Source of the DNA: Balamuthia mandrillaris
Lineage: Eukaryota
Assembly: GCA_031835245.2 (NCBI GenBank)
Contig: JAVKOQ020000024.1
Span: 310,001-340,629 of the forward strand
Length of the DNA: 30,629 nucleotides
Direction: 5' to 3'
Every line of letters begins with the position of its first letter. Position 1 is the stretch's first letter. Positions 1-27,192 of this stretch are shown here, piece by piece. The notes below the pieces were generated by a model. It had not been told where the DNA came from. It did no database searches and saw nothing but the letters and a program-made list of their open reading frames with translations. The position numbers and the translations under genes were made by a program.

Positions 1-1702
1 TTGCGGTACTATCAACACCTTGTGTGTTCTGGTGGGTGGAGTGAATAATCAGTAAACATAAACTAGAGGGAGAGGGAGAGAACTAAATGAGAAAGAAAAG
101 ACAGGCACGTACAAGACATAGATTGGTGTGAACTAAAACAGTTTCATCCGAGTCAGGCTTGGGAAGAGTACTGGGCAAAAGCCGGAAAAGCAAGGTTGTA
201 GTTTGCTTGGGTCCAATGGTCATGTCCTGCATTACGCGCGTGGAATCCTCTTGCGAGGAGTCTCGCTGAGTGGTTAAGGATTGAGCAAGTGCATCCTCCT
301 GGTAGGTCAAAGGCGTCAACGTCCAATAGGCAGAAATGAGGGAAATTTGAAGGCAACGAAAGAAGCAGGCCGTGCCGTCATTTACGTTGGCGAGATCCAG
401 CCCAAGCACGTAGGAGTTCACATCGGCAACGCTTTCCTTGACAAAGGAAGTCAATTGCAGCGAGGGTTTGACTTGAAAGGTTTCCGAAACTTTGGCGAGA
501 CGGTACTTCATTTCTGGGTTTTCCTTGATGGGTTCGTAGTAAAAGAGGAAGCGGAAGGCATGCCCTCCCGTGACTGCACCACGAACCCAAACAGGCACCG
601 TAACGGTGGCCCCAGGAGCCAACCCTTGCAGATATGGTAGCTCTATAATGCTAGGGTCAGTCAGTTGCCCTACAATAGAGGGTCCATTAATACTTCCATC
701 GGATCCTTCATTTCGCCCTGGCGTTGATAGCTTGTACTTGAAGGAGGGGTTGGGATGAAGCTGACTTTCTGTGGACGTGAAGCCATCCTCTTCTTGCTCC
801 TCCTCTTCCTTCTTTGTCTTACCGGTAGTCCACACATCTCCAAAAGGTAGCAGAGGAAGTGATCCATTGCCATCTGCCTGACTGGTCGCGGTGGAGGCAG
901 AAGAGGATGCTGCTGAACCAGAAACTACAGAGTCGTTTGGTGTGCCTAAAACAAAAAAGTGAGGGTGTGATAGCTTCACTTTGGCATTTTGCAGCGGCAT
1001 TTGGCCCTTGTTGCTGATTGTAAGGTCTAGCCGCCGCAGCTCTCCTTGTAGCATATAGTTGGGAAAGTGAGCAAAAGAAACCTGCAATAGTGGCATTGGC
1101 CGGGTCACCCGTATGCTCAACTGGTAACTTTCTCCGTCTGCACTAGAAGCTGAGGACTCAGCATTAGCTGCCCCCGAATTTTCCGTAGGAGAGGGTCCCG
1201 ATGTTGTTTGGGAGGCAGCCATGGCTATGTTGCGCCAGCTGCGGGGAAGTTTAAAGTATTGCTGTCCCCACACTAGACCGCACAGGTAGAATCCTATTCC
1301 TTTGATGTGTAGCGTCCCTCGCTTTAATGCTACCACCGGGAACAATAGCTACAACATTTAAATCATTTGGAAAAGAAAAATGTCGTGAGCGTTGACCACA
1401 AAGAGGGACAGGAATTAGTTGGCAGCACGTACCTTTTTCTTCTCTCCAGGTCGCAACACCAAGTCAAAAGGCTCAACCTCAAAGGCAACCTCGCCGCCAC
1501 TTTCCTCATCAGAGGGTTGCGCAGACGGAGTCGAGGGAAGTTCATGCTCGCATACCAATTGCAGCTGAGTAAATTGGATAGGCACCTGGAGAGGGTTTCT
1601 TACTTCTACTTCAACATAAATATATTCTACATTATAGTTGGGGTGGTATAATGGGTGGAGGCAAGAAGTTGGGGTGAGCACATGAAATGGTAATGTACAG
1701 AG

Positions 1703-1740
<38 letters not shown>

Positions 1741-4287
1741 TATGTAGGCACCTTCCACAACAGAAATGAGCTGACTGTCTAAAGAGGCCGAACCAGCAGC
1801 AGCAGCAAGAGCTTTCTTCCGTGCTTTTAGATCGCTACCAAATAGCAAGTCCTCAGTCATGGCCTGCCACTCACGAGTTTGAAGAGGCTGGTTGGCACTG
1901 TCAAAGTTGGTGAGGTAAACGCGGATAGAATTGCTGTTGATATAGGGGACGGGGAGATCAGATGCCGCCAAATGAGACTGTCCAGTTGTTGATGGTCCTG
2001 CGTGTGAAGAAGAAGAGGAAGAGAGAATAGTTGCATCAGATTGTTGGGAGGTAGTGGGAGCAGAGGTGGTAGTTTGCTTTGCCGCCATCAAGAACTGTTC
2101 TTGAAGGCGACGCCGTTCTAATGCTTCTTGGTATATGTGAAGAAACTCTCGGAGATAGGAGTTCTGTATGTGAGCTGGTTGATTGCTGTGCTGCAGTAGC
2201 CTTTTCATGAACGTAAGGGAATCTTCTACATCCCCTAATAGGAATTGATATCGCCCTAGCTTGAAATGAAGGGTATCTTCGATTAGACTCCATCCGCGTT
2301 CCTCGTAGACGCCGTAAGCTGTGTTACAACATCTCACCGCATGTTTCAGCTGTTGTACTGCTGCAAAATGTTCTGCTGCAGTTACCAAATGGTATGCAAA
2401 CCGCCGAAAGCTGTTCCCGTCATGCCGTCGTGTTTTGTTAAATTATTGGTTTAGAGAGATACAGAGAAAGAGAAACGACGAAAGAGAAAGAGAGAGTTAC
2501 CCTGGCGGTTGCGTGTAGAGGTGGCAAAAGGCAGCCTGTTCTTCCAAAAGGGCAGTACATAGATAAGTATTGTTGCTGTTGTAGGAGGACACCTGCTGCT
2601 GAGCCCAAGAGAGAGCATAATGCAGGGCCACGCAGCACCGCTTAAGGGTAAGAGAGGCATCATAGAAGGCCTGCTTACTCTTCAAAGTTTCAACAAGAAA
2701 AAGAGCACAGCGAACCATGTAAGGTCCTGCAATGTTGCAACGCTGATAACCAAGGAATGCCTGCTCCAAATTGCTTTCAACTTGCCTGGCTGTGGTTGTG
2801 TGTTGCATCTGAATACATAATGCGGTCATTTCGAGGACACCAGCATAACTGCGTTGCGCCAATGGGTCCTTCAAGGACTTGTACTCTATGCCCAATAGCT
2901 GTTTTTGGTGTAGTTTGGTAATGTTTAGTATTTTATGATTTCGAAATGAGGTGGAAAACGAATAGGGAACAGCGCAGGAAGCTAACCCGATAGTTTTCTT
3001 TGGCAAGGTCATACATGCCACACATGAACTGAAGGTCAGCTAGCTGGCGAACGGTCTTGTTGATGACATCCTGCTCCGTTTCAGCAGAGCCGGAGGAAGT
3101 ACCATGGCGAGTGGGTGGAGAAGCAGTCTTGGCTTTGGATCGTCCAAATTTGATGTTCAGAAGGGAGCTGACTTGAAAGCCAATACCTTTACGAGTCTGA
3201 GAGAGCTGCTCCTCGAGGCGCTGCATGACACCTTGCAAGTGCGGGACCACTGTTTTAATCGTGAGAGTGGAGACCCATTGTTGCAGTTCAGCCCAATCCT
3301 GCTGTGCCAGCAGAGTCCCATCCTCGTTTCTTTGTGCATCAGGCAATGAGTTCAGCTTCAGCAGATGACAATCTTTGCCAAAAGTTGTGCGAAGGTTGCT
3401 TATCGCTGTTTCTGCCCTGCACACATACGAGAATGGAATTAGAGATGGTAAGTATATAAAGACTGCGGTAGTGCCAAGATGTATAAAGTACGGACTGGCT
3501 TGTAGCAAAGTCTCTGGAGTCATGCAAAAGGAGATGAAACTTTGAGATGTTTGGATCACTAAATCCTCCTTGAAAGAGTGGTGGTGCTCCTTGTGGAGAG
3601 TACAGCTTCAGGAATGTGTTAGTGTGGTCCGCCTCCGCTGATGATATTGCGAAAACACCTTTTTCATACAGAATTGAGTAGGCCATGTTTAGTTCAGGGA
3701 GAGCAGAGAGAGCAGAGAAAGGAAAGAGAGCAGAGAAAGGACGAACAGGCAATAGGATAGTCGAAGTATTCATGGTGGTCGTGAAAACCGATCGAGTTAA
3801 GAAAGTGTTTACGGTAATTAATAAACCAAGGTGTTGGCTCCTGCCCTTTGCCGGCTGCATGCATCAGAATAGAGCATTGTAGCCGTGAGCAACAGCTTGT
3901 TAATAGAGAGTGAGAGAAAGAGAGAGAACCTTTGATAAAGAATGGCACATCAGTGCGATCCCTGATCTTGTAAAAGCTACCTTCGCCGTAGTGGTCAAGG
4001 TCAGCAGCACTTCTGTCGGCCACAATATCAAACAGCTCTTGAGCGATGACCTCTCTACTCTTGGAGTAGTGAGAGAGTTCGACGAAGCGGAACTGAAAGT
4101 CCCTGGGTTGGTAGACCTTATCGTTGGCGGCTTTGATGGAGGCTTGCAGGGGAGGGAACGGCACACAGTCCAACAGCTCCACGAGGGTGCGGTTGTTCCT
4201 GGCACACAGCTTCTCCGCTTCCTCGCTGCAAATCACCAGCACTACTGGCACAAAGGTCCTCCGTATGAGGTCGCACACTGGTTCCAT
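1..4287 (-). CDS. TRAPPC8: Trafficking protein particle complex subunit 8 (Trs85), multi-exon, 3' end outside the window
   Basis: ATG at 4287 gives MEPVCDLIRRTFVPVVLVICSEEAEKLCARNNRTLVELL, similar to the TRAPPC8 N-terminus. Family motifs: TPWF, HEYFDYPIAC, RQLADLQFM, ALLEEQAAFC, RRFAYHLVTA, GWSLIEDTLHFKLGR, YLREFL, NPLQVPI, GELRRL, FLFYYE. ORF pieces join through short GT-AG introns in consistent phase. Confidence 0.9.
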
Positions 4288-4715
4288 CGTTTCGGAAGTG
4301 TAGCTAAGCGCCTTCACCAAGCAAACAGGCAACCAACTAGTTCTTCGGTGGCACCAACAACTACCAAACACAGAGAAGGAAGAGCCGCGGTGGTTCGGTA
4401 GCAGAGGATCTAAGGCCAGAAAGAAAGAGGCGCCTCTTTCTTCACGCTTGCTTGCGCAAGTGTGTAGAACCTCTCTTCCCCCCCTTTTTTTTTTGTGTGT
4501 GTGCGTGGTTGGAGGAGATATGACCCCTCCAGCAGCAACCAAAAAAATGGCCAAACTCTTCTTTCTTTCTGGCCTTAGATCCTCTATCCTCTCTCTTCTC
4601 CGCCGCAGCAGCAATCATCGCGCTGCTGCTGCTGCTGCTGGAGAAACTTCAAAAAAGAAAGAAAGAAAGAAAGAACAAATAAGAGGTCAAAGACCTCATC
4701 TCATCACAACAACAC

Positions 4716-4932
4716 ATGTTGTCGCAGCTGTCTAACCTGCTGGGTCTGGAGCGAACGGGCTTACCACAACCAAAAACACACAGGTTCGTTGCTCTCTTGG
4801 GTTGTTGCTTGGCTTGCTTCGAGGTTTGACACTAATAGCCCTTCCTTTTCTTTTGGTTCACAACCCTCTGCTCAGCCTCTCTCCTTCTCTTTCTCGGTTA
4901 TCGGAGGAGCACGTGCGGGTCATCGTGCGTGT

Positions 4933-4967
<35 letters not shown>

Positions 4968-5776
4968 CTCGCTCTGCTGCTCCTCTCGCTGACGCCTGTG
5001 TGAACCTCTGCCGGTTTTTGCACCGGGTTGGCTGCATTTCTAACAACGCTGGCCATTCACACACAATGCAACTAAACAAACAGGTATATCAAGAAGGAGA
5101 CAGCAAAAACAACACGCTTCTCTTTGACTCTCACCAACAACAGACCACCACCGCCGACACCTCCCATAAAGACAAGTCACGGGGCAAGCCAACCGCCACC
5201 ACTTCGCATTCCTTTCCCTCTTTTCACGCTTATTCCCATGCTGTTTCTCCTTCTGCTCTGCCCTCCTCTCCTTCCCCTACCTCACATAAGGCCCGCCAAG
5301 CAAAGGTAATTCTCGTCTCTTCGTTGTTCTCCTCTTCTTTCTTGGCTATACTGTCTCTTCTCTCTCCCTTCCTAACCTCCTCGGTTCTGACGGGTGGTAT
5401 TTGTCATCTGAAGCTGCCCCCATGGTTGAGTGAAATGATGTTCGGAACAATGCCAATGGTATTCCTCGGCACTAACACGAAGTTGCATTTCATTTACAAC
5501 CCTCCTTCGCCAGATGCTACCTCTAGTTCCTCTTCCTCTGCTTCTTCTTCACGCTCTTCCTTTTCATCCTACGCTCCTCTTTCCACATCTACGATGCCAG
5601 GGCCGCAACCGCTCTCTCCCAGCAAGATATTGCTCACCAAAATAATCGCCTTTAGAGCTGCTGCTGCAACTGCTGCTGAGCCTCTTCATAACCACTCAGC
5701 TCAGCATCTCCACCAACATCGTTTACGCAGCCGAAGTGTACGTTTGCTTCTAACCGTTGAGTTTGGTTCAGCAAAA

Positions 5777-5807
<31 letters not shown>

Positions 5808-8038
5808 GAGAGAGAGAGAAGAGAAGAGAGAGAGAGAGAAGAGAGAGAGGAGAGAGAAGAGGAGAAGGGAGAGCACTGCAAAATGTTTGCTTGATTAAAT
5901 GCTCATTACTTGGAACCAGTTTCAACGCAGTGGCCACGGCGAAGAAAGGAGGAAGATCAAATTTTGTCTGGGAGTGTTCTTCTACATCCCAGAGGAGATT
6001 CCCTGTTTGAAGAGACTTATTTTGTCTCACTTTCCCATTTTGAACCATCACGCCAACAAACTGTTGAGTTCTCTGAAGGCCCGCTTGTGTGAGGAGGTCG
6101 CGAACGATTTTCGTCCTTTCAATAGTGAGGTATCAACATTTTACATTCTTATCACCCATTTGGTGTCTTAATTTTCCGGATCTGCAGAGTACGGGCAGTG
6201 GAGAAATATTGGTACCATCTGTCCCTCTGCTTGGGGTCTATGCTCTACAACAAGACCCAAAGATAACCTTCTCGGTCAGGTCTTACCAGCGGGCTTTCTG
6301 TGCACTGTTTGCCACCCCGCGGCTTCAAGTACCGTCGATAAATCTTTTCCCTCTCTTCTCTCTTCTCTCTTCTCTCTTCTCTCTTCTCTCTTCTCTCTTC
6401 TCTCTTCTCTCTTCTCTCTTCTCTCTCTTCTAACCACGCAATGAAGGATCCGTTATGGGCGGCCATCACAAGTCACAACGGTTGTGAGGAGCGGTTTAGT
6501 CAAAGCCTGGTGAAAGCCCTGCAAGAGCTGCACGACATGTGTGACAATTCCAAAAACAACTTCTTCCTCACCATGCTCATTACATCCCTGCTTTCAAACC
6601 ATCTTTCTTGGCTAACATCCATTTCCTCGCCCACTAGCCAAGCTCCCTCTCCCTCCTCACCTTCATCCCCAATCTTAACTCTGGAGTCACCACACAAGGA
6701 ATACGCCAACGGTACCATAGCTCATCAGCTCGACACTCTAAACGGTAGCTTTGGCAAGTGTACCAAGGCTACACGATTGATCATTGTGGGCAGTGATGAG
6801 CCTCTTATTAAGGCCCTCTTATTCGTGCTTACCTATTTTATTCGAGGCCACGACCTCACTGCTGTGTCGCGGCAACCTTGCTCTCCTACCTGCTTGTACT
6901 CCAACCGCAGCATCGAACACCTTTGCTCCTTATCTCCTTCTTCTCTTCCTCACCCTATAACCACCACAACTGCTACACCAACCTCTACCTCTCAAGAAAC
7001 TTCAGGAACAACATATAAGGGATTAAAAACCTGTGAATTAAGTGCGAATTGCAAGCTTGATGTGGTTCTAATGCCCGACAACGGAGGAGAGGACCACTTA
7101 TCCAATGGACACCAGAAAGCAGAAAGCAACAACACCAATGGCAACTCTAACAGAGGGAGGAGCAGTAGCGTCAGTGCTGCGAAGACAAAGCATCTACAGG
7201 ACGCTTCCTGCAGTTGTCTTTTTCGGTCTCTCTGTGCTGCCTACTCGAAACTAGGCTATTCCAGCGACTTTACATTGTTAGGTATTGCCGCAACCAAGAA
7301 TGAGGAGGCTCATGCCATCGCCTCTTCAGCTCAAATAGCAAAGGCTGATGCGAACTCGATGGACCATCACAGCTGGTTTCCAGCATTAGTAGACGACTTA
7401 AGGTCACAAGTTGCTCATCCTTTGCTGCCCTCCTCTCAAGCGCGAGCCACCGTTCGCTCCTCCTCCTGTATAATAGCCGACACTAACTCCTGGACCTGTA
7501 ACCTTGTAACTTATAATCCCTGGAATCTCACGAGGCAGCCCTTCAAATGGTTGTGGCCTCCCTCCTCTCCTCTCCCACGTTGCAGCCCATGACTTATAAC
7601 GATTGTCAAAGCAGGAAGGGCCGTGAATATAGGGGTGTGTTTGTTGACACAGTGGCCCACTCACAGTTTCTTCACTCTGTCATGTGGACCATCAGTGAGT
7701 TTCACAAAACAGGGTTATCCTCAGAGGCGTGTCTTCTCTACGTAGAAGACAAATTGCAGGAGCTATATGCGCATAGCAACGTGTTGTTGGAGTTCATTGG
7801 AAGCCAACAGTTACCAGAGACCTCATCTGCCCCTAGTGCCTCTGCCAGCGGCAGTATGAGTGGCGCGCCTCCAATGGTGACCTTGTCAGACATGTCAACA
7901 GCACTTGGCTTTGGGCTTGGTGACCTCATTCTTCTTCTTTCCATTGCTTGCACAAAAAACCCATCCATAGTGGACGCACTCCACCCTGTTGATATCTTGC
8001 GGGAGGGTACTCTCAACAACATCCTTCCTGTCTCTTGA
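4716..8038 (+). CDS. FNIP: Folliculin-interacting protein (FNIP/Lst4 family), multi-exon
   Basis: Spliced N-terminus MLSQLSNLLG...VRVI|VYQEGDSKNNTLLFDS. FNIP motifs: LSEMMFGTMPM..GTNTKLH, SHFPILNHHANKL, TPRL.DPLW, FLTMLITSLLSNHLSW, LLFVLTYFIR, CIIADTNSWT, LYVEDKLQELY. Stop at 8036-8038. The last intron is inferred at 7506-7585. Confidence 0.88.
5778..5872. repeat. (AG)n microsatellite in a FNIP intron; similar tracts at ~1706, 4934, 6351, 8083, 8499 and (CCTT)n at ~10407
   Basis: Simple repeats seen directly. Confidence 0.95.
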
Positions 8039-8129
8039 ATAGATATTTTGTTAACAAAATAGCCGTAAAGGCCTATTTCTGTTGAGAGAGAGAGAGAGAG
8101 AGAGAGAGTGAGAAAGAGAACAAGCTGTT

Positions 8130-9775
<1,646 letters not shown>

Positions 9776-10036
9776 CTCTCCGACCTGCAGCAGAGAGAAA
9801 CCGGTGCAAAACGAAGCAGGTTTGTTTGTTTGTTTGGCAAAGAGGCACGCCGCAGCCCACAACAGGAGCCAGCATGACGTCATGCGTCAATGAGGGGCCA
9901 AACACCACCGTGTCCTTGTAGCAACCCCTCAGGCGTAAAAAGGGAAAAGCGCTAATACAAAAAAAAAAATACATTTCTCCGCTAATCGCCGCAGCAGCGC
10001 TCAACTCTCTTCTCTGCTGTTTTGTAGTTAGTTACG

Positions 10037-10309
10037 ATGGTAAGCACAGCCCTCCCCCTTCATCCTGGCGTGATGATTAACGAAGCCCCGCTAATACTCT
10101 TTCTTTATCAGGCGCGCTGGACCACATACTACCTTTCGCCATTCCGTCAGAGGCTCTTCCACGGGTTCTTTTCCACAATGTTGCCCCGCTACACAAAGAA
10201 GGTCAAGACGAACGCTCCCATCGTCGCTCCTGCCTTTATCACTGGTGTATACATCTACAACTGGGCGCTTTCGGCGAACAAGGAGTACCACCGGTCCCAC
10301 TGGTATTGA
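10037..10309 (+). CDS. QCR8: Cytochrome bc1 complex subunit 8 (QCR8/UQCRQ), 66 aa after splicing
   Basis: ATG|gtaagc intron 10040-10111 ...tatcag|GCG gives MARWTTYYLSPFRQRLFHG...PAFITGVYIYNWA. The Y.LSPF.Q motif, single TM helix and small size fit UcrQ. Confidence 0.8.
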   Translation: MVSTALPLHPGVMINEAPLILFLYQARWTTYYLSPFRQRLFHGFFSTMLPRYTKKVKTNAPIVAPAFITGVYIYNWALSANKEYHRSHWY

Positions 10310-10625
10310 ACTAAGACGTTGGCAATTGTTTCCTTGTTCGTTGTGCTCTGCCACGTTTACACCCAACAAAAAAAAAGAATTTTTTTTTCAAAACCAAAAC
10401 GCACCCCTTCCTTCCTTCCTCCCTTCCTTCCTCCCTTCCTTCCGTTCTCCCTTCCCTCCCTCCCTCCCTTCCTTCCTTCCTTGACAAAAAGAAGAAAGCT
10501 CTCTCTTGCGCCAATTAAAAACAAATTGAAAACCAGTAAACGACAGGGTGGGTGGGTGGGTGGGGGAAGAACAAAGACGCTTAGAGAGAAAAAAGAGCCA
10601 ACAACAGAAACTTGGAGAAGCAGGC

Positions 10626-12981
10626 ATGGGTCTTTGCAAGTGCAGAACAATCACAGACCTCTATTGCTTTGTGCACAAGAAAGCTGTGTGTGAGCATTGC
10701 GTTTTTCCTGAGCACAAAGTGGTACGTTGAAAGGGGAGACCAAAGAAAGCTCCACCCACCACGCCTACACCTTTCTTCTTCAGCTGAATGAGGCTTGCTT
10801 TCCATCACAGTGCGTCGTTGGTACCTATGTAGAATGGCTTCAAGATCCAGACTATGAACCTCCCACCTGTGCAGTATGTAAGGAAGAGCTCACAGAAGAC
10901 AACGTGCTTCGACTTCTCTGTCTTGGTTAGGGCCTTCCTCTACCTCGTTTTTGTCGCAACTCAGTAATCCCTTGCTTCCCCTACGTAGATATGTTTCACC
11001 CGGAATGCATTGATGTTCATGCTGCTTCCTTTCCCCCCAACACTGCACAAGCTGGCTTCACCTGTCCATCCTGCCTTGTACGTCTCTCTTTCTCTTCCTC
11101 TTTCCCTCTCTAACCAGTTCAGCCCCAAACAGAAAGGCATTATACCCTCCAGCAGTGCTGATTTATCTTCCCCTCTTGCCCAACAATTGCTGCGCCACCT
11201 CAACAACGCTCCTTGGTACAAGGGCAACAACTTGAGTTCCTTGGTAGTTGTCCTTTTTTTTTGTATTCCCTTCATCTCCTCTGTTCACTCCTCTCTCTCG
11301 CTCTCTTCTCTCTCCCTCCCCTGCTCTGCTCTCTGCTCTGCTCTCCACTCTCCTCTTCGTGTTCACCAACAACAAATTGCAGCCTTTACATGATGCTGGG
11401 GAGAGTGCCGTTGCTGAACATGACTCACTTCATGCGCCAGAAAGCAGCAACAGACAAGCAGCCATTCCCCTTCCTCCTGTTCGCCAGGACACTGCATTAG
11501 AAGTAACTACCAGTATGCCAGTGGCTAACACAGGTAAGTGACATGTCGTTTTTCTGTTTTGTTTCCCAAACTACTACCATACAAGCCCCATGGGGTTCCC
11601 TTGAAGTTTTCACGGCCCATGACACCAAATACTACTTGGTTCTCGGGGCTGTGTGAAAACTATTTAAGCAACCGCTCTGTTCCTTCCAGTCGTATCCCAC
11701 AGTCCCTTCATGTCACAAACCACTCCTACTAGCACTGCAACTACTGTCACTACCGCTACCAACACAGTTACCCCTCAAGCCTAGCCGATGTCACTGTAGA
11801 CCTTGTGCTTCGGGTAGGCTTCTCGCATACGCTCAACCTCAGGTTTGAGGTGCTCTCGTTGTCCATGACTGGAGACTCTACAGTGACATCGGCTCGGGCA
11901 TCAACTGGAAGCGCAAGGACTTTGTCACCCTTCTGGAACAGGTCCTTGCTGGACGTGTCGAGGAGGTTGTGGTTGCCCACAGGGACCGCCTCTGCCGGAT
12001 CGCCTTCGAGCTCGTCGAACACATCTTCCGTAAGTGTGGAACCCGTCTCCTGGTGCACCGTCCGGACGACGTCAGTGGCGACGACGATGACCCAGCAGAG
12101 CCAAGCTACGTCCTCGCCGACAAAAAGACCGCCAGAATGCTTTATTCCTGGGGCCATTACCGATTCCGCCAGTGGTTGCTGCATAAGGCGAGGGAGTGGG
12201 GCACCAAGGTCTACGTTCGATCGGAGGCCTGGACCAGCAAGACCTGCACCTGGTGCCTCCGTGTGACCCACGAGCAGAAGAAACCCAACCAGAGAGAGAG
12301 GATCTTCGAGTGCGGGCATAGGGACTGTGGGATACGACTGGATCGAGACATAAATGGAGCGCGCAACATTCTTCTACGGAACCTTGTTGCGTAGCGTTGC
12401 CCGATGGAGCCATATGGGGACGCGCTGATGGGAAAGTGGATGGGCGCTTCTGTAGCCCTCTAGCCCACCCCATCCCCGCATTCTCGCAAGAACTTTCATT
12501 TGTGGGTTTACTCACTTGTGTGACTTTTAATCCATCAGGGGTGGCCTCTCGGAAAGCTCAAAGGAGTAACTACGGGTTTCTGCGTGGGGCAGGTTCTCAG
12601 GTTGAGGATGACGATGATGATGACAAATACCGAAAGCATAGTATCATGCAACTTTTTCGTGGAATCTCGTACGTTGTTGCCCTTTCCTCCTTTTAAACAT
12701 GAAGAACAAGAACGGGCAGAAGGACAGAAAAGAAGAACTAGAAGAACCGATTGGCAAGAGCAAGAGAGGCAAATGAAAGGCGACAAGCTGCTAACCATGG
12801 AGATACTTTCACACCATCACCTAAAAGGCCAAAACAGGAACTATTGCCACTCTCCAGCAAACGGTCTCGTGCATTTAAGTGCACTACTCAGAAAGTACTA
12901 ATTGTGGTGGCGTTGCTTTCAACCCTCGCCACTGTTCTCTTTCTAAGCATGAAACTTAGAGTGGAACCCCTCAACGAATGA
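10626..12981 (+). CDS. ZFPL1: Zinc finger protein-like 1 (Golgi B-box/RING-like, C-terminal TM), 7 exons
   Basis: Exons 10626-10721, 10811-10925, 10989-11077, 11133-11243, 11383-11533, 12539-12668, 12858-12981. Motifs MGLCKC..T.LYCFVHK..VCEHC, YVEWLQDPDY, FHPEC..PPNTAQAGFTCPSC, DDDKYR and a C-terminal hydrophobic anchor. Confidence 0.93.
11586..11661. repeat. Structured left end of the Fanzor element (palindrome plus long hairpin)
   Basis: CCCCATGGGG palindrome at 11586-95; AGTTTTCAC 11605-13 / GTGAAAACT 11653-61; GGCCC / GGGCT; ACCAA 11624-28 / TTGGT 11636-40. Confidence 0.7.
11783..12118 (+). pseudogene. tnpA: IS607 TnpA serine recombinase remnant (N-terminal wHTH missing; catalytic segment 11801-11876 inverted)
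   Basis: + frame from 11879: YSDIGSGINWKRKDFVTLLEQVLAGRVEEVVVAHRDRLCRIAFELVEHIFRKCG. The - strand over ~11885-11784 reads HCRVSSHGQREHLKPEVERMREAYPKHKVYSDIG. Confidence 0.88.
11865..12394 (+). pseudogene. Fanzor2 (eukaryotic TnpB) with large internal deletion: N-terminal overlap segment (11865-~12120) plus RuvC-II/ZnF/RuvC-III (~12120-12394) in a different frame
   Basis: C-terminus KKTARMLYSWGHYRFRQWLLHKAREWG..VRSEAWTSKTCTWC...FECGHRDC..LDRDINGARNILLR keeps catalytic E and D and four Cys. N-terminus SPFWNRSLLDVSRRLWLPTG...SWCTV. RuvC-I (D-x-G) and WED/REC are absent. Confidence 0.9.
12395..12510 (+). ncRNA. Putative Fanzor omegaRNA scaffold (to ~12490) followed by a flank-derived guide
   Basis: Lies directly 3' of the Fanzor stop. 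Long hairpin: GATGGG 12427-32 / CCCATC 12469-74, GTGG 12436-39 / CCAC 12465-68, GGGC 12442-45 / GCCC 12455-58, with a wobble extension 12415-24 / 12477-88. Identity is inferred from known TnpB/Fanzor locus architecture. Confidence 0.55.
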
Positions 12982-13062
12982 GCCAAAAGAAACAGAGAGT
13001 TGAATGAATTTGTACAGTTCAACGAAAAAAACAAATTAGTCCCTCCCTCCTTGACTATTATT

Positions 13063-15625
13063 TCATCGCCTGCCAGTAAGAAAGCGAGCAAGCAAGGAAC
13101 CTGGCCTGTTCTCGTTTATGAGACCAAGCAGCGCTTGCTCAAAATCGGAGAAGAGGTGCGCTAGTGGTGCTGGTTCACTCTAAAGATGTCACAACATTAA
13201 TATGCAGGCTTATGATGCTCCAGAGGAGAACTGACCTTTAATAGAAGATAAGAAGCTGTTCCTGTGGAGGACGAAGCAGGACAGGCCGGTAGAACGCTAA
13301 AGCTCACGCCGCCTAAAAACGCGGCCGTGTGATCACAACACTGTCAGTCACTTAAAACTGAAAGAAAGAAGAGGGCAAGATGAAATACCTGGCAAAGAGG
13401 CTGGGTATAGTATACGCAAGAAAATGCTATAGAATGGGAAGTGATGGAGGCAATGCAGTGCCGTGTAGAACGAGAGGTAAATCGCTAGAACTGCTAAGCG
13501 TGCACCCGTAAAGTAGAGGTAGTAGGCAAATGTGGTAGGCAACAAAAAGAACATAGTGGTGAATAGCAGGGTGCCAAGAATGAGCTGATCAATGTCATAA
13601 GCATAAGAGTCGATGCGCTGCTTTAAAACATTGCGTTTTTTGCCTGCAATGGTCACATTTAGTGGAGCAAAGGAGAGGAGAAAGGGAAAACGAGAAAAAC
13701 TTGCCCCTGAATAGTTTCCATAAAGAAGAGAGGATGTGAAATTGGAAAGCATAGCAGCGCACAGATACTGATAGATTCAAAATAACACAGGTGAGAAATC
13801 CCACGCAATGAATGTTTTAGCAGAGAGTGTGGTCAAGCGACGGGACAATGAGGCTTTGAAACGCCCACCCATCGCCCACCACATCCCTGGCTCCATCGGG
13901 CAACGCTAAACTCCATATGCATTGGCCATGGAGAAATACGAAATTTCACGTACCTGTATAACAATAGAATATGTGGATATGCAGCAATGATAAGATATCT
14001 AACACGAAACTGATCATCATAGATAAGCCGAACAAGCCGCTTAAGGCCACACCTTTCAGCAGCATAGGTATTAGTGGTACTGCAGCCCGCATAACCACTG
14101 TGAAGCAACTGTGAAAAAGAGGTACAGGATTAAAAAAAAAGTGATGGGATACAAACCTTGCCAAGAGCTCAGGAGATAGAGGAAGATGGAACCAAAGAAA
14201 TGAGCAAGTGTATGGTTAAGTTTAATGCCTGCAGGCTTGCCCCCCATCAGCCATTCCACCCCAGCTCTCAGCCGTGAATCACTGAGATGTGACATTTGGT
14301 AAATGAAGTGACAGTCTACTGCTCCTCCCCATTCTTCAGAACTGGCGGATAAAATCTGGCTGTGATTCCAGAGCAACCAAGCCACCAAACAACCCAAAAA
14401 AAGGTCAACAATCAATGACCACACACGGTGATAGCAGCGTTGTTCCAACACTCTCCATGTAGGTGTAGAAGTATTACAGGCGCACAATTGCTTCCATTCC
14501 GTTTGCCAGCTCTGTAGAAAGCAGCGCCTCCGTGCCACCTCCTGGCCTGTCGAGCAACAATATTCATGCGTCAGACAGCAGCAGCAAACGGGTATACGGC
14601 CAGACAAAAGGGTGAGAACGTGGTAACATACCGATGGCGGTGAGGCTTAGTGCGGTGAGGGAAGGGCCGTTGGTGGGATTAGAGAACAAGGAAGGAAACG
14701 GAATGTTGAGTAAGTGCAGTAAAGGCACTGTTAAGGGCTGTAAGAGCCATCCTGCTGTCAACAACAACGAAAGGAAGATGGTCATGCAGCTCTTTCCTCT
14801 TCCGACGGATCTTTCAATGGAGGGATGGCGGGATCCCCTGCTGTTGCGTTGCAAAAATTCACGACAAGGCCAGAGGCTGCTATTAAGGAGGCGGAGAGAC
14901 TCGTCCAGTTGCAAGGAGGGAATTGAGGTTTCTTCTGGTGGGCCAACCACCTGTGGTGTAATCTTGTGGTGCCCAACCACCTGTCGCTGTTGGTGCTGGT
15001 TGGGATGAGCAAATGCTTCTCCTTCTCCAACGTTGTAGCAGGAGGAGGAGAGGGTAAGCGGTTGGGTGGTGTAGAGGGAGTGGTGAAGAGCCGTGGGGTC
15101 GTAGAACAGCACTCGTTGCACCTCCTCTGTTGAATCAACAGCACTTTCAGAAGCTATGTTATACATTGTCAAGCGTCTAAAACGCGGCAGAGAACAGCGT
15201 TGCTTGTCGAGTGGTTCATTCGCCAGAATGTGCAGCCAAGGCTGCTGCCTGTTGGTTGTTGTTGTTGTTGTTGTTGTTGTTGGAGGTGTCCTTTCTGCCT
15301 CCAGTTGAAGTTGGCCCAAAAGCTGAGCACGCTTGGCCAAAGGTTGTTGTTGTAACGTTAAAAGCGCCCTCATTTCAGGTTCAGCACACTGCAAACAAAG
15401 AAGAAGAAGAAGAAGAAGAACAGCAGCAACAGCAGCAGCGAAAAAAAAACATGAGCACTACTGGGAAGAACAAGCTGCACTAGCTTTGTACGAAAAGAGG
15501 AGGACCTGCGAATAAGGGACCACGGCTATCACACATACAAAGCGCGGTGGTACCATCCAGCCAACTAACCAACCTCCTGCTGTAATGTTGTCTGTGGGCA
15601 CATCGACTGGCCAGAAGACCTCCAT
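13063..15625 (-). CDS. PIGQ: Phosphatidylinositol N-acetylglucosaminyltransferase subunit Q (GPI1), 8 exons
   Basis: Starts MEVFWPVDVP...GWLVGW at 15625. Gpi1 motifs DLFLG, WLMGGKPAGIKLN..L, LWKLFRGKKRNVLKQRIDS, DQLILGTLLFT..FFLLPT, LPGG. Ends LARFLTGRR* at 13063. Confidence 0.93.
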
Positions 15626-15789: not shown

Positions 15790-18267
15790 GTTAGGGTAAT
15801 CATCTGTGAGCCTTACCTTGGTGAAGCGTTGCAAAAAACAGCCAAGACCTTGAACAGCTCTTTGTTGGAAGAAAACGAGAAAATAACGCTTATGCAAGGG
15901 CCACGAGAAGAAGAAGGAAATAAAGGCACTAAGAGAAAGTTTAGAGAAGGAGGAACCAAACGTGATGAGGAAGACAAAGTGCTGACTAAAATGCAGAGAC
16001 AAACCACTTGTGAGCCACATACTGACCTGGAAACCACGCCACCGAGCCTCCTCAGGTATTTTGAACGCTAATTATTTTCTACTTATCTTGTTTTTACAAT
16101 CTTTAAAACAGTGTTGCCTCTACTACCGAACCGGAGGAACCATCCCTCGATGCAATCGCAGAATCGGCTCGTAAATTTTGCGGGCAGTTCCTCTTTTCTC
16201 CATGGTACTTTGGAGGGGAAGAAGTGGAGGAAGTATTTCAAAGAATTAAAATATGCCAGCAGGCGTGCTTGCAGCAACGCGAATTCATCGCACTGGTGCA
16301 AGCCACCATGATGGGTGCGTAGGTTATTTTGCCAATTAGAACATTTCAAACAAGAAAAATTATTCAGCAATAATCCAGAGGAACTCTGCACAATCAACCA
16401 AGACATTGACCTCTTCAACGCTTCCTTATTCCATGGCGGAAACAAATACGTTAATTGGATTTTCAACAGGGAGGTTGCCAAGGTATGGCAGGACGACCAG
16501 GAAGCTGTTTCGAAGGAGATCCAAAGTCGTCATGAAAAGCTGACAAAAGAGTTGAGTGCACCAACATTTGCACTAGACGAGTGCCATGTCCTTCTTTCGC
16601 AACCTCGTGAGGCCAAGGCTTTGCTCTTCCATTCTGACTATAAGAACCACGATCAAAATGACGTGCTGCAATGGCAACGCCACGAACGGTTTTCCCTGTG
16701 TTCAGACACCTACCCTTATCCGTGTGAAACGACTCTGTTCTCCGGCTTTCGCTGGGTACTGGAAGAATACCTGTTGAAGCTTGCTCCCCACCAGACTGCC
16801 ATATTCGCATCCACCTTCTTATCTGTTTGGGAACCTCTTATGGACGAAAACCTGTATTCGAGAGAGAAACCTAGCATTGCAAAGGTGATCCTGAAACACA
16901 CACTGACCTCATCCAACCTGATACAGGTACTTATGGAAATGGGGGAAGACACAAGCAAGCTCAACGAAGACCATCCCATCTTATCATTATGGTGCGGCCG
17001 CCCTGGGTTGTTCTTTGACTTTTTCCTGTTCGAATTTCTGGTTCTGCGTAAGTCGGTGCAGGCCTCACCCCTGCAAGACGTTCTTCAACAAACACATGCA
17101 AAGGCCGAGCAACATCTGTACGAGAAGGTTTTGGATCCAGCCTTGCGCAAACTGGAGAAGCTGGACAAGCTCCAAATGTCAAACCTGAGCTTCGGTGTCA
17201 CCGGCAAAGAACTATGTTACTTCCTCGTCTTCAGCTCACGTATCTGCGGTGGAAACATCTTATGCCAGGGGTCATCCGCTCTATCCGAGCTCGTGGCAAA
17301 TGGTTTGGTTATTGTGGAAACATTCAATCACAACCACAAGAGCATCGGTATGATCAAGGAACCCATGATAGAACGTTTTTTGTTGGTGAGAGCCACCAGG
17401 AAGGATGCCCACGCGGCCTGTGACCAGTTTATCGCTGAAAGGATGAATACCGCCACTGGAAGCAACTTTGGCAACGAGGCTGAATATGCAGTGGCCAACC
17501 AGATTCTTGCCTTCTCTGGGCACAGCTTACGGAGTTTGCTCACAAAGTGGGGCTGTGTGGCAGCCGATAAACACATCCCCGAGGGCTTTTATGTCCTTGC
17601 CCAGCGCTCTGCTGCGCTCAACGACCTTAGCGTTGAGTCAACCGAGCTCCTGGGCGACGGATCCCTCCTCAGAGTAACTAGACCACGTGATAGGATCATC
17701 CTGCCAGGTGCCTTGTTCTTTGCTTCTACCGATGACGTTACATTGTGTCTTGTTTCAGTGCAAGTAAAGTGTGTTTCAAACAGGCTCTCTGCTGAAGATT
17801 TTGACCATGCCATCCATAGCTTATGTAGGTACCCTGTCTGTTTATTGGCCTTCTCAACAGACTCCTCACGCCTCAGTGTTTTTTTTCTCAAGGTATCGAT
17901 AAGTTCCTTTATTCTGCAAGCAGCAAAGGTGCATCAAATCCCTACTTTGTTCAAGCTTGTCTTTGCATTGACAGCCCTTCTGTTTTAAAAAGGTCCCCAG
18001 GATACATTCCAGCAAAAGTGGAAAGAATTTGTTGAAACAGACAAGCAGGTCTCCTTTGTTCGAGTGTTGATATGCACTGCTGGGTGGACATATAAACAAA
18101 AACAATCCATTCACACTTATAACTTGCAACATTCAAACCAACCCATACTATTAGCAGGAGCAAAGAAACAAAAGGCTATTTTTGGCTCCCTGTGTGCAAA
18201 GGCTATAAAACAACATGTTCAGAAAGAAGGAACACACATCCACAAAAAAAAAAAGGAAAGCCAATAG
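15790..18267 (+). pseudogene. Probable Crinkler-type NTPase + restriction-endonuclease-fold (CR-NTPase/REase) gene, damaged
   Basis: Exon 16112-16315 ends FIALVQATMMG (P-loop-like lead-in). The 557-aa ORF has LWCGRP, LVANGL, IKEPMI, GNEAE and LPGALFF...VSVQVK (PD-(D/E/Q)xK-like). The same frame continues past TAA at 17986-88 (KGPQDTFQQKW...FVRVLIC). Start exon uncertain. Confidence 0.5.
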
Positions 18268-22667: not shown

Positions 22668-25600
22668 TCATGATACTGCTCTCCAATATGCCTGGACCAG
22701 GTCTGGCACATTGATAATGTTACGTTCAGGCTCCCAAGAGTTGTGGCAGTTGGAGAAACCTTTCCACTTCAACCTATATTCAAGTCCTCGACTGGTGTAG
22801 CGGTGATCTAAAACTTTCTCAACCTCATATTCGTCATTAGTGAGCTTTCTATCTTCATCGTTACATGGGATGAATCATTTGATGCGGTTTAGGTTTACCA
22901 CTTTATCCGTTTCAGGACCAGCAGTATTCTGCACCTTGATTGCCTGTGAAGAACAGCGCGGGCTTCTTCTGCAAGTTCACGCTGTGTCTCCTGCAGTTGC
23001 CTCACCCACGAATCATCGGACAGATGAGTAGTGTCCACCAAACTGGTACCATTGGACTTCCTCCCAAACATCAGCTCGTAAGGGGTAAATCATCGTCCTG
23101 GCAGTGGCGCGTAGTGATAAGAATAAAGTAGCATTGGAAGGTACGCACTCCAGGCTTGTTGCCTGCCATCCACAAATTTGCGAAGCTGCTCCTTAAGGGT
23201 GCGGTTGTATGCCGTTTCCTTGGAGATGCTCTGCCATGACGTATTTACACTTGATGCCCAGAAGAGTTGAAAGCTCATTGTTGAGTTTGTTAATGAACTC
23301 TCTTCCTTGATCAGACAGAAGCTCCTTCGGGAGGTCCATGCTCGCGAAGATCTCAAGTAAGGCCTTCACCACTTCCTTTGCTTGTTTCGTCTTCAATGGA
23401 CGAATGTCCGGCCAACACGTGAAGACGTCAATGGTGACCAAGGTGTATCAGTACCCTTCAGCCATCAAGGGCAACTCACCAATCAGGTCCATGCAGACCA
23501 ACTCGCCTGGCTCATTTGCAATAATGTGACCCAACGGCCCGTCAGCTTTCTTCCACGGAGCCTTCGCCTCCTGGCATTCCACAGCCCTTGACCCAATGTT
23601 CCACATCTTTGTGAATACCAGGCTACCAGTACTGCATGATGAGGCGGGAGTACATCTTTGTAAGGCCGAAATGCTCACCTGTAGGAACATCATGGAACTG
23701 ATGAAGTATCTCATTCCTAAGCTCCTTGGGCACGATTTGTTGGATGGTAGCTTGTTTGACCTTGGCTTTATCAGGCCAAATCACATGTAAAAGTTGTCCG
23801 TCTTGGAGGAAGCACTGCTCCATGAGTGCCAACTGATGGGGTGTCTTACATTGACATGCCTCCTCGTTGCCTTCAATGGCTTAGATGATCCATGAAAATT
23901 CATCATCATTATGCAGCAGCTCAAGCCATGAGTCAGAATCCAACTCCATATCCGGTAAAACCTGCAGGGAGCCACTTTCTTGTGACTGTATCTGATGGTC
24001 ATCTTCATCATCTGACTGGCTGCCTTCCCCTCCATCTGCAAAAGTAACCTGTTTGCAGTTCTTTGGACAAGTAACAGTGTTAACTGCACCAAGAGCGAAT
24101 GGTTCATGGCTGAGACTATCAGCATTTAAATGTTCTTTCCCTGGTCGGTGGGAAACTCAGACGTGGCCAAATTCCTGCAGCTTGGCAATCCACCTCACCA
24201 ACTTGCCCGAAGGGTTTTTCTGGGAGAACAGCCATTGCAGCGCTGAGTGGTCCGTGACGACACATTCAAGCTGCTGAAGAACATAATGTCTCCAATGCTG
24301 CAAGAAGACAATGGCGTAAGCCTCCTTCTCCGTAGCACTCCAATTGAGCTGCGGACCAGAAAGCTTCTTGCAGTAGGCTACAATGTGGTATAGCCCATCC
24401 TCTCCTTTCTGCTCCAGAGTTCTCCCAATGGTGTAATCACTGGCATCACAGCAGATCTGAAAGTCTTTTTCAGCATCGGGATAGGCAAGGACAGGAGAAC
24501 TGATAAGAGCCTCCTTTATCCCTTGGAAAGCCTGTTCCTGCTCATCGCTCCACACGAACTTCGTTTTGGGGCTCATGAAGTCGGTGAGGGGCTTCACCAT
24601 CTCAGCGAGATGATGAATGAACTTGCGATAGTAGTTTGCAAGTCCAAGGAAGCTTTGTAGTTGCTTCCTAGTGGTAGGGCGAGGGCAATCTTGCACCACC
24701 TTGACCTTGCTCTGCATGGGACTAATTCTGTCACTAGACACCATGTGTCCAAGGTACTCCATTATCTTCTTTACGAAGGTGCATTTGTTAATCTTCACAT
24801 AGAGTTGATACTCATGGAGATGCTCAAAGACCTTGTGTAAGTGAATGAGGTGGTCCTCAAATGTCTTGGAAAAAATGATGAGGTCATCAATGTGACACCA
24901 AGAAAATTTCCGCTTGAATTCGCTGAAGATCTCGTCCATTCCTCATTGGAACATAGCCGGAGTGTTGATAGGTCCGAAGGGCATAACTACAGGCTCAAAC
25001 TGGCCGGATTTCATAATGAAGGCTCACATATTTGCAATACGCTCCTCCATCAGGAAGTGCCAAAAACCACACGCTAGGTCAAACTTGGACCGGAACTTGG
25101 AGCCGTGGAGGCAATTCAGTCCGTCCTCAATGTTTGGCATAGGATAGGAGTCCTTCACTGTCTGTTTGTTTAGCTCTTTGTAATCAATACAGAAACATGG
25201 TTTTCTGTCCTTCTTAATGACGATGATTACTGAGTGTGCCCATTTGCTGACAGATTTGCGAATGACGCCCATGAGGAGCATGTCATCCGTGGCAGTGTCA
25301 ATGGTCTCCTGAACCTTGGTGCTTACCTTGTGAGGCTTCACACGGATGGGGGTATAATCTGTTAGGACTATCTTGTGGGGAGGAAGTTTAACACTTCTCG
25401 GCTCAGGAAGCTTGTAGCAAAAGACATCCTTGAATTCAAGGGCCAGCTCTAGAAGCTGTGCTTTCTGCCTGATATCCAGGTCCGTGTCATTCATGAGCTC
25501 TCTCAAGCCCATCATTGCCTCTTCCTTGGTGGAAAGCTCCACCAGGTAATTAACGTCCATGATGTCATGGGTCTCCTTTGTGACTGAGGTGCACACTTGG

Positions 25601-27086
25601 TCGTCATCAGAGTTGCAAGATGAACCTTCCACAGATTTGCTCTCAGTGAGAAGCAACCAGTGTTGTCATACTTCCAATGGCCAGTGGCACTTCTCCACAT
25701 ATCTCCATTATGTAGGCTACTCATTTTAACTTCTTTAGGTAGAAGTGTTTCTCAAACAAAGCTATTGGTGGCACAGGAATCCAGCGCGGCCTTGACTGTC
25801 TTTCTTCCAGAGATCCTCAATGTCATCCTCGGCAGACAATGTGTGTTCTTGACGACAATATTCATTGATCCTGTCCTTCCACCAGCACTGTCCTTCTGGG
25901 CTGGCGCCTGGCTTTGGCTTCCAGACTTGCCCTTTGTGTCCCGCAAAGCACCGCCAAAAGTATCCTTCTTCTTGCTTTGGTCAACACGTTTCTTTTCCAA
26001 GCACTCTCTTGTCCAGTGCTCTCTCAACTTGCAGTTGTAGCAAAAGGGTCTCTTTTTCCTCCTGTCATTGCCTGAACTGCTGTTATTGTTGTTCTTCTCC
26101 CACCTTGAGCTCTTTGACTGATGGTCCAAGCTCCGTTTCGCATGCTTGCGTCCTTCCAGTCTTTAGCGAGGTTCAGGGCATCAGCCATATTAGCGATATC
26201 TTCCTGCTGAAGGAATTTCTCCTTCAGGTCTGGAACAGCGCCTGTGACAAACTTCTCCAAGACCTGAGTCTCGCTGAAAACCGTGAGGAAAGCCTCTCAC
26301 AGTGCTGTACGCACTCACAAGTTCCAGGTGTCTACAGACTCATCAACATTCATCTGGAGGTTACCAAGCTTTATGATCTTAGCAGTTGCTCAGTCACAAT
26401 GCTGGAAGCAGTTGAGGAGCTGTGTTTTCGCCTCCATGGAGGTTAGTAGGACTCCACCTTTCGTTTGTTCTTGCTCAAGGAAGCAGTGAACAACATCAGT
26501 GTTGTCACGAAGTTGTCCTTCAAAGTGAAGGATATAGTCCTGATGACTCCAGCCAGTGTTGTGTTTGGCCATACATCGTTGTAAATCTTGATGGCATGCC
26601 ATAAGGTTGAGTGCAGGTTTTCTCTTCTCCTTCTCCTTTTCTTCCTCCTCTTCACTCAACAATGAAGAGCTGGACCCAGAGCCAAGATCATCATCTTTAT
26701 TCGCAAATTTGGCCTTAAGAAGGTTTTGCAGTTGAGAGATTGCATCGTTAAGAGCCACAAAAGCTACATCATGACTATCATTCACTTTTGATGTCATTTG
26801 AGAGCTCATCTGCAAAGGTTTCCAACTTTGCATTGATATGGTTGATATGGTCAGACAAAGAAGAAGTGTTGCTAGTCTGCTTGACCAAGAGCCTGTCGTG
26901 GTCCGCTTGGCTTGCGTGAAGCTCAGAGAGAGCCTGGTCGATGGCGTCTAGTCTGTCCATGGGAAGGGTTGTAGAAGTAGTAGGGGAAGGAGTGCTGGAA
27001 GCTGGAGGGATAGCACCACTGAAAGGTGGACCGCTCTGCACACCAAAAGAAGGAGTTGTACCAGACTGCAGCGAAGTTCCTGACAT
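22668..27086 (-). pseudogene. gag-pol of the Gypsy element (multiple frameshifts and stops)
   Basis: Fragment ORFs 26778-27086, 25752-26129, 25024-25656, 24157-24939 and 23193-23441. C-terminal chromodomain at 22832-22668: EYEVEKVLDHR...YRLKWKGFSNCHNSWEPERNI. Confidence 0.92.
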
Positions 27087-27192
27087 TTTACATCACCGAA
27101 CACTGCTATAGAAGTGCTCCAAGTTTCCTCCAAAAACCCCGAGTATCCAAAAATAGGTTAAACACCCAAAAACCGAACTTGCCAAGAAAAAA

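Follow-up and report, generated by a model that had tools for sequence, protein, structure and literature searches.

How new spliceosomal introns originate without a change in coding sequence is a long-standing question, and the known introners, transposons that constitute whole introns, mostly depend on target-site duplications or on chance splice sites. Their described sources are terminal inverted repeat (TIR), long terminal repeat (LTR), non-LTR, Helitron, and tyrosine-recombinase elements (PMC9860276; PMC12130899; PMC11282704; here and throughout, published work is represented by portions of the cited texts). In IS607 elements, crossover takes place between matching dinucleotides at the element ends and in the target, with precise empty sites, and the scaffold of the omegaRNA terminates with the crossover core (PMC10711439; PMC10690162). 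In IStrons, splicing severs this scaffold from the guide (PMC10690162). The locus described here lies in a 30,629-nucleotide (nt) stretch of the Balamuthia mandrillaris genome (contig JAVKOQ020000024.1 of assembly GCA_031835245.2, positions 310,001 to 340,629; hereafter, the window), in which intron 5 of the gene ZFPL1 is a broken and non-autonomous member of an IS607-Fanzor2 transposon family with multiple copies, and is probably an IS607/serine-recombinase introner, a spliceosomal counterpart of the bacterial IStrons. The family likely makes new spliceosomal introns on insertion into exons, with crossover at a shared AG core.

Removal of six GT-AG introns from the ZFPL1 model (translation from 10626 on) yields 281 amino acids (aa), identical at 281 of 281 positions to the database protein 'Zinc finger protein-like 1 [Balamuthia mandrillaris]' (P0136). 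Intron 5 (11534–12538) measures 1,005 nt, compared with 55–159 nt for the remaining five modelled introns, and its exceptional length, noted in an earlier interpretation of the letters (the sequence-only reading), is borne out by this model. The intron is in phase 1 after codon 187, with the junctions ACAG/GTAAG...CCATCAG/G (slashes mark the intron limits), and with it retained, translation stops after 189 aa.

Four public runs (X6, X7, X21, and X22) were compared with positions 10500–14700 of the window; read and contig counts refer to the matches listed, and the DNA or RNA nature of X6 and X7 was judged from intron content. Small-share runs from soil and other organisms were left aside. Matches to other copies begin at 11530 in at least five X21 reads and at least four X6 contigs, with discordant flanks upstream, and loose ends occur behind 12538 in at least seven X21 reads, at least 13 X6 contigs (consensus agreement 0.42), and at least three X7 contigs. 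Since the other copies match only from 11530 to 12538, the unit that they have in common is the whole intron, GT through CAG, together with the preceding ACAG. The sequence-only reading had thought of further copies sharing the same ends, and the reads and contigs that stop at 11530 and 12538 supply them; its narrower limits, 11586–12490, give way to an element that starts with the GT at 11534 and whose last bases are the acceptor AG, ending at 12538.

An allele without the intron was found in X6, where a 980-nt contig (record 2) joins 11291–11531 directly to 12537–13292. This contig contains intron 4 and intron 6 sequence and is, because both are kept, genomic. The empty ZFPL1 allele that it represents has the same layout as the spliced junction and was seen at one locus in one run; the evidence for it stands in the contig-piece table, and the listed joint row 11530>12536 names only X21 and X7. 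CAG is present at both element junctions and in a single copy in the empty allele. The sequence-only reading, which proposed PCR for an empty allele, had pictured an element hidden inside a host intron; the empty allele does exist in genomic DNA, it has no intron at that position, and the ends of the element are themselves the splice sites.

The second copy in the window, in PIG-Q/GPI1 (13768–13953), was overlooked by the sequence-only reading and lies 1.2 kb from the ZFPL1 element. Its left end is identical to that of the ZFPL1 element at 18 of 22 positions, a match that no other GT site, of 3,337 in the window, surpasses apart from the query itself, and its right end is identical at 107 of 147 positions. 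ACAG stands directly before both window copies (2/2) versus none of the seven other introns checked. The exons on both sides of the copy match PF05024 (Gpi1), and the PIG-Q frame is open only with the copy removed exactly; retention of either window copy adds a stop. The copy is present in X6 DNA, in which record 7 spans the left junction, and its spliced joint, 13767>13954, occurs in one X22 read and one X7 contig. Furthermore, four internal-deletion joints among the rows listed imply additional miniature elements of 159, 119, 176, and at least 182 nt with both ends; these lengths lie near the mean of 113 nt reported for introns of B. mandrillaris (10.1101/2025.02.25.640156). At 12498, X6 has a summed contig depth roughly 100-fold that of the flanks; summed depth is no valid count of copies and was rejected as a copy number.

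Overall, the locus combines features by which three kinds of element are recognized. A short matching core at the ends, no TIRs, and a scarless empty site are those of an IS607-type element. A whole intron that is the element and receives both splice sites from it, in 2/2 window copies, together with a presence/absence polymorphism with a clean empty site, is typical of an introner, and the coincidence of splice sites with transposon ends is that of an IStron.

The closest longer relatives, two of 14 matches, are the B. mandrillaris transposases P0001 and P0002, which are 92% identical in the Fanzor C-terminus. The IS607-type gene order, in which a MerR-type helix-turn-helix (HTH) and a resolvase precede a TnpB/Fanzor encoded on the same strand, is found as both domain sets in one chain in the predicted P0002 and as remnants in the window copy. 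The full-length proteins carry the Fanzor signature (DPG, Pro at RuvC-II, and an alternative Glu before the zinc finger; PMC10530073; PMC10711439), in P0001 as ALDPG at 263, IIPTF at 352, E408, and DRD; of this signature, the window copy retains only the Glu, the zinc finger, and RuvC-III. The top PDB match is 9B0L (ApmFz2, a mimivirus Fanzor2; E 3.8e-22), and a Naegleria lovaniensis homologue (P0005) is 51% identical over the C-terminus. With P0001 and P0002 as full-length relatives in the same species, the earlier description of a non-autonomous IS607-Fanzor2 derivative with both ends, sense to ZFPL1, stands.

P0001, P0002, and P0003 form a Balamuthia clade (support 100/100) in a tree of 41 rows, a hand-picked subset of the relative loci, which does not settle the sister group. 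Alignment-based scans of metagenomic and viral contigs yielded 158 distant relative loci of at most 44% identity, with a resolvase upstream within 2 kb at 95 of them. When shorter proteins were searched for resolvases, the relatives reached at most 49% identity, and the 120 listed of 628 included no Balamuthia name; P0001 alone had no match in viral contigs, and exact-motif scans found neither the right end in metagenome contigs nor the left end in viral contigs. RNA reads of X21 and X22 over 11769–12538 are about 90% identical to the element, and their loose ends run into sequence that this copy is missing, indicating that longer family members are transcribed.

Table 1. Features of the ZFPL1 element, its host gene, and the PIG-Q copy, in window coordinates (P0002, full-length relative; HSP, high-scoring segment pair; slashes, intron limits)
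Feature	Position	Strand	Basis or remark
Host gene ZFPL1, seven exons, 281 aa	10626..12980	+	Gene model, database protein; end coordinate approximate
Exonic target motif ACAG, predicted target-adjacent motif (TAM); AG or CAG, predicted recombination core	11530..11533	+	Junction comparison
Whole element, equal to ZFPL1 intron 5 (GT...CAG); non-autonomous IS607-Fanzor2 derivative	11534..12538	+	Loose ends, empty allele, gene model
Left end, also 5' splice site GTAAG	11534..11555	+	18/22 identity with PIG-Q copy
Exact 23-nt antisense copy of 12320–12342 (Fanzor zinc-finger codons)	11685..11707	-	Just 5' of resolvase ATG
Resolvase N-terminus remnant, ATG at 11710	11710..11779	+	Weak tblastn match, P0002 aa 1–14, 8/14 identical, E 6.6
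Inverted segment encoding P0002 aa 92–125, resolvase active-site region	11784..11885	-	88% identity, tblastn
Resolvase core remnant, P0002 aa 119 to about 195	11873..12121	+	77% identity over HSP; PF00239, NF033518
Fanzor2 C-terminus, P0002 aa 572–659: alternative catalytic Glu, zinc finger, RuvC-III	12122..12394	+	92% identity, alignment
Right end, predicted omegaRNA scaffold; terminal ATCAG is the 3' splice site	12392..12538	+	107/147 identical to PIG-Q copy
First bases of ZFPL1 exon 6, predicted guide of any omegaRNA made from unspliced RNA	12539..12558	+	Inferred from IS607 omegaRNA architecture
186-nt miniature copy, whole PIG-Q/GPI1 intron, ACAG/GTACG...CTATCAG/T	13768..13953	-	Sense to gene, phase 1

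The internal anatomy of the ZFPL1 element (Table 1) is that of a truncated and partly inverted copy. Its open reading frame at 11849–12391 matched the Pfam profiles PF00239 (Resolvase; E 1.4e-7) and PF07282 (TnpB zinc-finger domain; E 1.1e-16), as well as the NCBIfam profiles NF033518 (IS607 transposase; E 7.5e-18) and NF040570 (guided TnpB; E 8.6e-19), both of which, owing to the truncation of the copy, scored less than their cut-offs for whole proteins; the resolvase and TnpB/zinc-finger content named in the sequence-only reading is thereby confirmed. Its Fanzor2 N-terminal motif was not recovered: with the full-length proteins P0001 and P0002 as tblastn queries (E<=10), no match to the Fanzor N-terminus fell inside the element, and the idea that the 5' part holds such a remnant was rejected on this basis. 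RuvC-I and the N-terminal Fanzor domains are absent from the window copy, as is the MerR-type HTH region that follows the resolvase N-terminus in P0002 (MerR match in P0002, E 8e-4), and the resolvase core remnant ends at a large internal deletion, in which roughly 375 codons are lost relative to the predicted P0002 chain. The window copy cannot encode a resolvase or a Fanzor enzyme.

An internal inversion, also missed by the sequence-only reading, has turned the segment for the resolvase active site onto the minus strand. The inverted segment is flanked by a 21-nt inverted repeat, and the opposite-strand joint, 11801/11877, is present in contigs of X6 and X7. At 11780–11897, an 18–21-nt duplicated arm surrounds an 8-bp inverted repeat, and the inversion is consistent with a replication template switch. 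The 23-nt inverted repeat formed by 11685–11707, in the 5' untranslated part of the element, and 12320–12342, compared with a longest such repeat of 14 nt in 1,000 simulations, could be a template-switch scar or an antisense or hairpin feature of the element family. A repeat search found no inverted repeat joining the two termini of the element, and TIRs were rejected on that ground. The identity of a group I intron was likewise rejected, since no Rfam family reached its gathering score anywhere in the window and the 186-nt copy is too short for one.

A right end could be called at 29 of the 158 relative loci, in 11 groups. Judged by eye, 10 of the 11 groups end in C-N-G (ATCAG in two, ATCGG in four, ATCTG in two, AACGG in one, and AGCGG in one) and one is unclear. 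The ATCAG of the window fits the ATC-N-G pattern of the relatives, an agreement in sequence that independently places the end of the element at 12538 and makes the acceptor AG the likely core for the recombinase. Of the AG-core relative loci with a left end, 0/6 have GT after the core, versus 2/2 window copies; thus, in this small sample, the acceptor looks like an inherited feature and the donor like one specific to the family. Among the relatives, IS607 groups whose terminal dinucleotide is AG or TG, not the canonical GG, were also noted (L007, L089, L094, L111, L126, L138, and L143; L085, L092, L106, and L124). From the insertion sites, the TAM is predicted to be ACAG. This context resembles a proto-splice-site.

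The sequence-only reading had proposed structured ends, but neither end of the ZFPL1 copy folds better than shuffled sequences (z -1.08 for the right end and -0.64 for the left end); the right end of the PIG-Q copy has z -2.40. In a two-sequence fold of the right ends, 3 of 31 pairs change on both sides. An 8-bp helix of 12425–12432 with 12531–12538, which holds the 3' splice site, has p 0.01 versus shuffles in the ZFPL1 copy only, and a general terminal pseudoknot was rejected, 0/21 relative loci being significant. The architecture of IS607 omegaRNAs (PMC10690162; PMC10711439), on which the predicted guide position is based, also bears on the suggestion that the excised intron could supply omegaRNA. 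The scaffold is predicted to end at the last base of the element, which would place the guide in the downstream exon. If the family works like other IS607 elements, the excised intron would not be a functional omegaRNA, because splicing severs the scaffold from the exonic guide, and only unspliced pre-mRNA could supply one.

With respect to splicing of the filled ZFPL1 allele, a spliced ZFPL1 contig of X7 shows 0 differences from the window haplotype over three exons, and the empty haplotype of X6 differs from the window at 11141, 11428, and 12631; the annotated protein P0136 also agrees with the spliced model of the window. On these grounds, the filled allele is likely spliced. The three X21 joint reads were rejected as proof of splicing, since they carry empty-haplotype letters. 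Reads of X22 at 11026, 11141, and 11428 show both window-type and empty-haplotype letters (2/8, 2/6, and 1/3), at very low depth, a hint that the sample is heterozygous or mixed and could bring filled and empty alleles together. The annotated ZFPL1 'variant 2' (P0135, 186 aa) reads through intron 4 and has the codon-100 change of the empty-allele run.

On the proposed mechanism, the recombinase of an intact copy would release the element in circular form and, by core exchange, insert this circle at ACAG, giving the product target-AG/GT...element...AG; no end-to-end circle joint is among the joint rows listed for the four runs. In the sense orientation, the product would be a perfect intron, removal of which would restore the coding sequence to the exact base. 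Exons would tolerate sense insertions, which would shrink to miniature copies of 119–186 nt resembling ordinary introns. Unspliced RNA running into the next exon may form an omegaRNA that guides intact Fanzor2 to the empty allele, recognized as ACAG plus exon sequence; this targeting would promote restoration or homing, and splicing would cut the scaffold from the guide, as in IStrons. More speculatively, and less likely than not, the family may represent mobile and homing spliceosomal introns, which an IS607 recombinase would insert without a scar at exonic ACAG, which the spliceosome would conceal, which omegaRNA from unspliced pre-mRNA would spread through the population by aiming Fanzor2 at the intron-less allele, and whose shrunken copies may make up a sizeable, unrecognised share of the seemingly ordinary introns of this amoeba.

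Several observations weigh against the interpretation as an intron-making family. Two copies are shown to be introns, and the flanks of the remaining ones (at least 13 right-end contigs in X6) may be non-coding. In the tree, the AG-core relatives are not placed as sisters of the Balamuthia proteins, in a poorly resolved region. The right end of the ZFPL1 copy folds no better than shuffles, and the helix at its 3' end is not significant in the PIG-Q copy or at any of the 21 relative loci (1 of 23 ends overall). X21 carries empty-haplotype letters (4/4 reads at 11428 and 3/3 at 12631), and X7 has no contig matching the inverted segment of this copy, so that its spliced contig could possibly derive from a window-like empty haplotype. 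Filled ZFPL1 DNA and the spliced RNA joint were not seen together in the runs of one sample, and the types of runs X6 and X7 are themselves inferred from intron content.

These points give some room to other explanations, of which the strongest, still unlikely, is that an ordinary eukaryotic IS607-Fanzor2 family has ends that read GT and AG by chance and has most of its copies outside exons, so that the two introns are rare lucky survivors, the family is no major source of introns, and its ends were not shaped by splicing. An acceptor would need no adaptation on this account, since relatives from viral and metagenomic contigs already end in ATCAG, and the prior for a GT following a given AG core is roughly 1 in 16; the loose-end consensus flanks, moreover, are not assignable to exons. 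Chance is strained, however, by the finding that both window copies (2/2), 1.2 kb apart, are exact sense-strand introns in coding regions, that the left ends of both, despite their divergence, make good donors, and that at least four more miniature copies of intron-like size have both ends.

It is improbable that the insertion is old and was once fixed, the empty allele having arisen later by precise loss, either cDNA-mediated or through a recombinase acting in trans, in which case the polymorphism would reflect the loss of an intron, not a recent gain, and the family may no longer make introns. The heavy decay of the ZFPL1 copy (two deletions, one inversion, and about 8% protein divergence from full-length copies) would suit such an age, the flanks of the filled and empty haplotypes differ by only about 1–2% (9/737; 11/about 750), and excision by serine recombinases does give precise joints (PMC10690162). 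An X6 piece with only three differences over 12138–12405, however, suggests young relatives of the ZFPL1 copy, RNA reads of longer copies are present in X21 and X22, and even an intron that was later lost would have originated from the element. The possibility favored by the sequence-only reading, a miniature element nested in a pre-existing host intron that provides the splice sites and, once excised, the omegaRNA, now appears very improbable. The length of the intron and the sense orientation of the element would agree with nesting, but the splice sites are common to other copies, the guide would be exonic, and a genomic allele without the intron contradicts it, barring a chimeric artefact in the X6 contig. 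The reading of intron 5 as a broken IS607-Fanzor2 introner thus remains the preferred one.

Elsewhere in the window, an intronless open frame of 558 aa at 16312–17988 (+) has no Pfam match at E<=0.1; its layout presumably resembles that of ATPase-plus-nuclease proteins of protists. A decayed LTR-retrotransposon occupies about 23000–27100 (-), with reverse transcriptase and RNase H matches at 24160–24942 and, by eye, gag- and integrase-like fragments nearby. Housekeeping neighbours in 83–10309 are TRAPPC8/Trs85 (-), a folliculin-interacting protein (+), a protein kinase (-), and the cytochrome b-c1 subunit UcrQ (+).

Among known systems, the element shares with the IS607 IStrons (group B, CboIStron; PMC10690162; PMC13565253) an IS607 serine recombinase with a TnpB-type nuclease, splice sites at the transposon ends, a spliced product that regenerates the gene, many degenerate copies, and a 3' splice site that is the predicted end of the omegaRNA scaffold. 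Unlike IStrons, it is without a group I ribozyme (0 Rfam matches) and has spliceosomal GT...AG ends in a eukaryotic nucleus; its predicted core and target are AG and ACAG, instead of GG and TGGG. Thus, it is IStron-like in its working, yet, lacking a ribozyme, it is not an IStron. In eukaryotic and viral IS607-Fanzor2 elements (ApmFz2, 9B0L; P0005), a resolvase likewise stands upstream of a Fanzor with DPG, Pro at RuvC-II, and the alternative Glu before the zinc finger, but in those compared, the TAM is GGG, versus the ACAG predicted here, and in the portions of the literature represented here, introns are described inside Fanzor genes, whereas here the element is the intron.

Like the introners described in PMC9860276, PMC12130899, and PMC11282704, the family includes transposon copies that are whole spliceosomal introns, mostly non-autonomous, located in unrelated genes, and variable in presence or absence. 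Unlike them, it has no TIR, its repeated CAG is read as a recombination core and not as a duplicated target, and it encodes an RNA-guided nuclease. In the main texts of these three papers, IS607 and serine recombinase do not appear, nor does TnpB in the two in which it was sought. As far as the parts represented here extend, the 2025 introner survey has no serine-recombinase class, with no Balamuthia entry in the 12 of its 14 supplement files that were searched, and in the 2026 review of obligate mobile element-guided activity (OMEGA), 'spliceosom' and 'introner' do not occur. A full-text literature search, with subscription journals, Repbase, and two supplement files outside its scope, led only to IStron, introner, and review papers and returned no IS607 or Fanzor element described as a spliceosomal intron. 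The element is probably a new class of introner. If its core is the acceptor AG and its left end the donor, insertion would give exact introns by construction, always after ACAG, and removal would be equally exact. Since one species has both segregating filled and empty alleles and full-length Fanzor2 genes, public sequence data suffice to test intron gain, precise loss, and RNA-guided homing. The family would then be a convergent, spliceosome-based counterpart to the stealth strategy of the bacterial IStrons.

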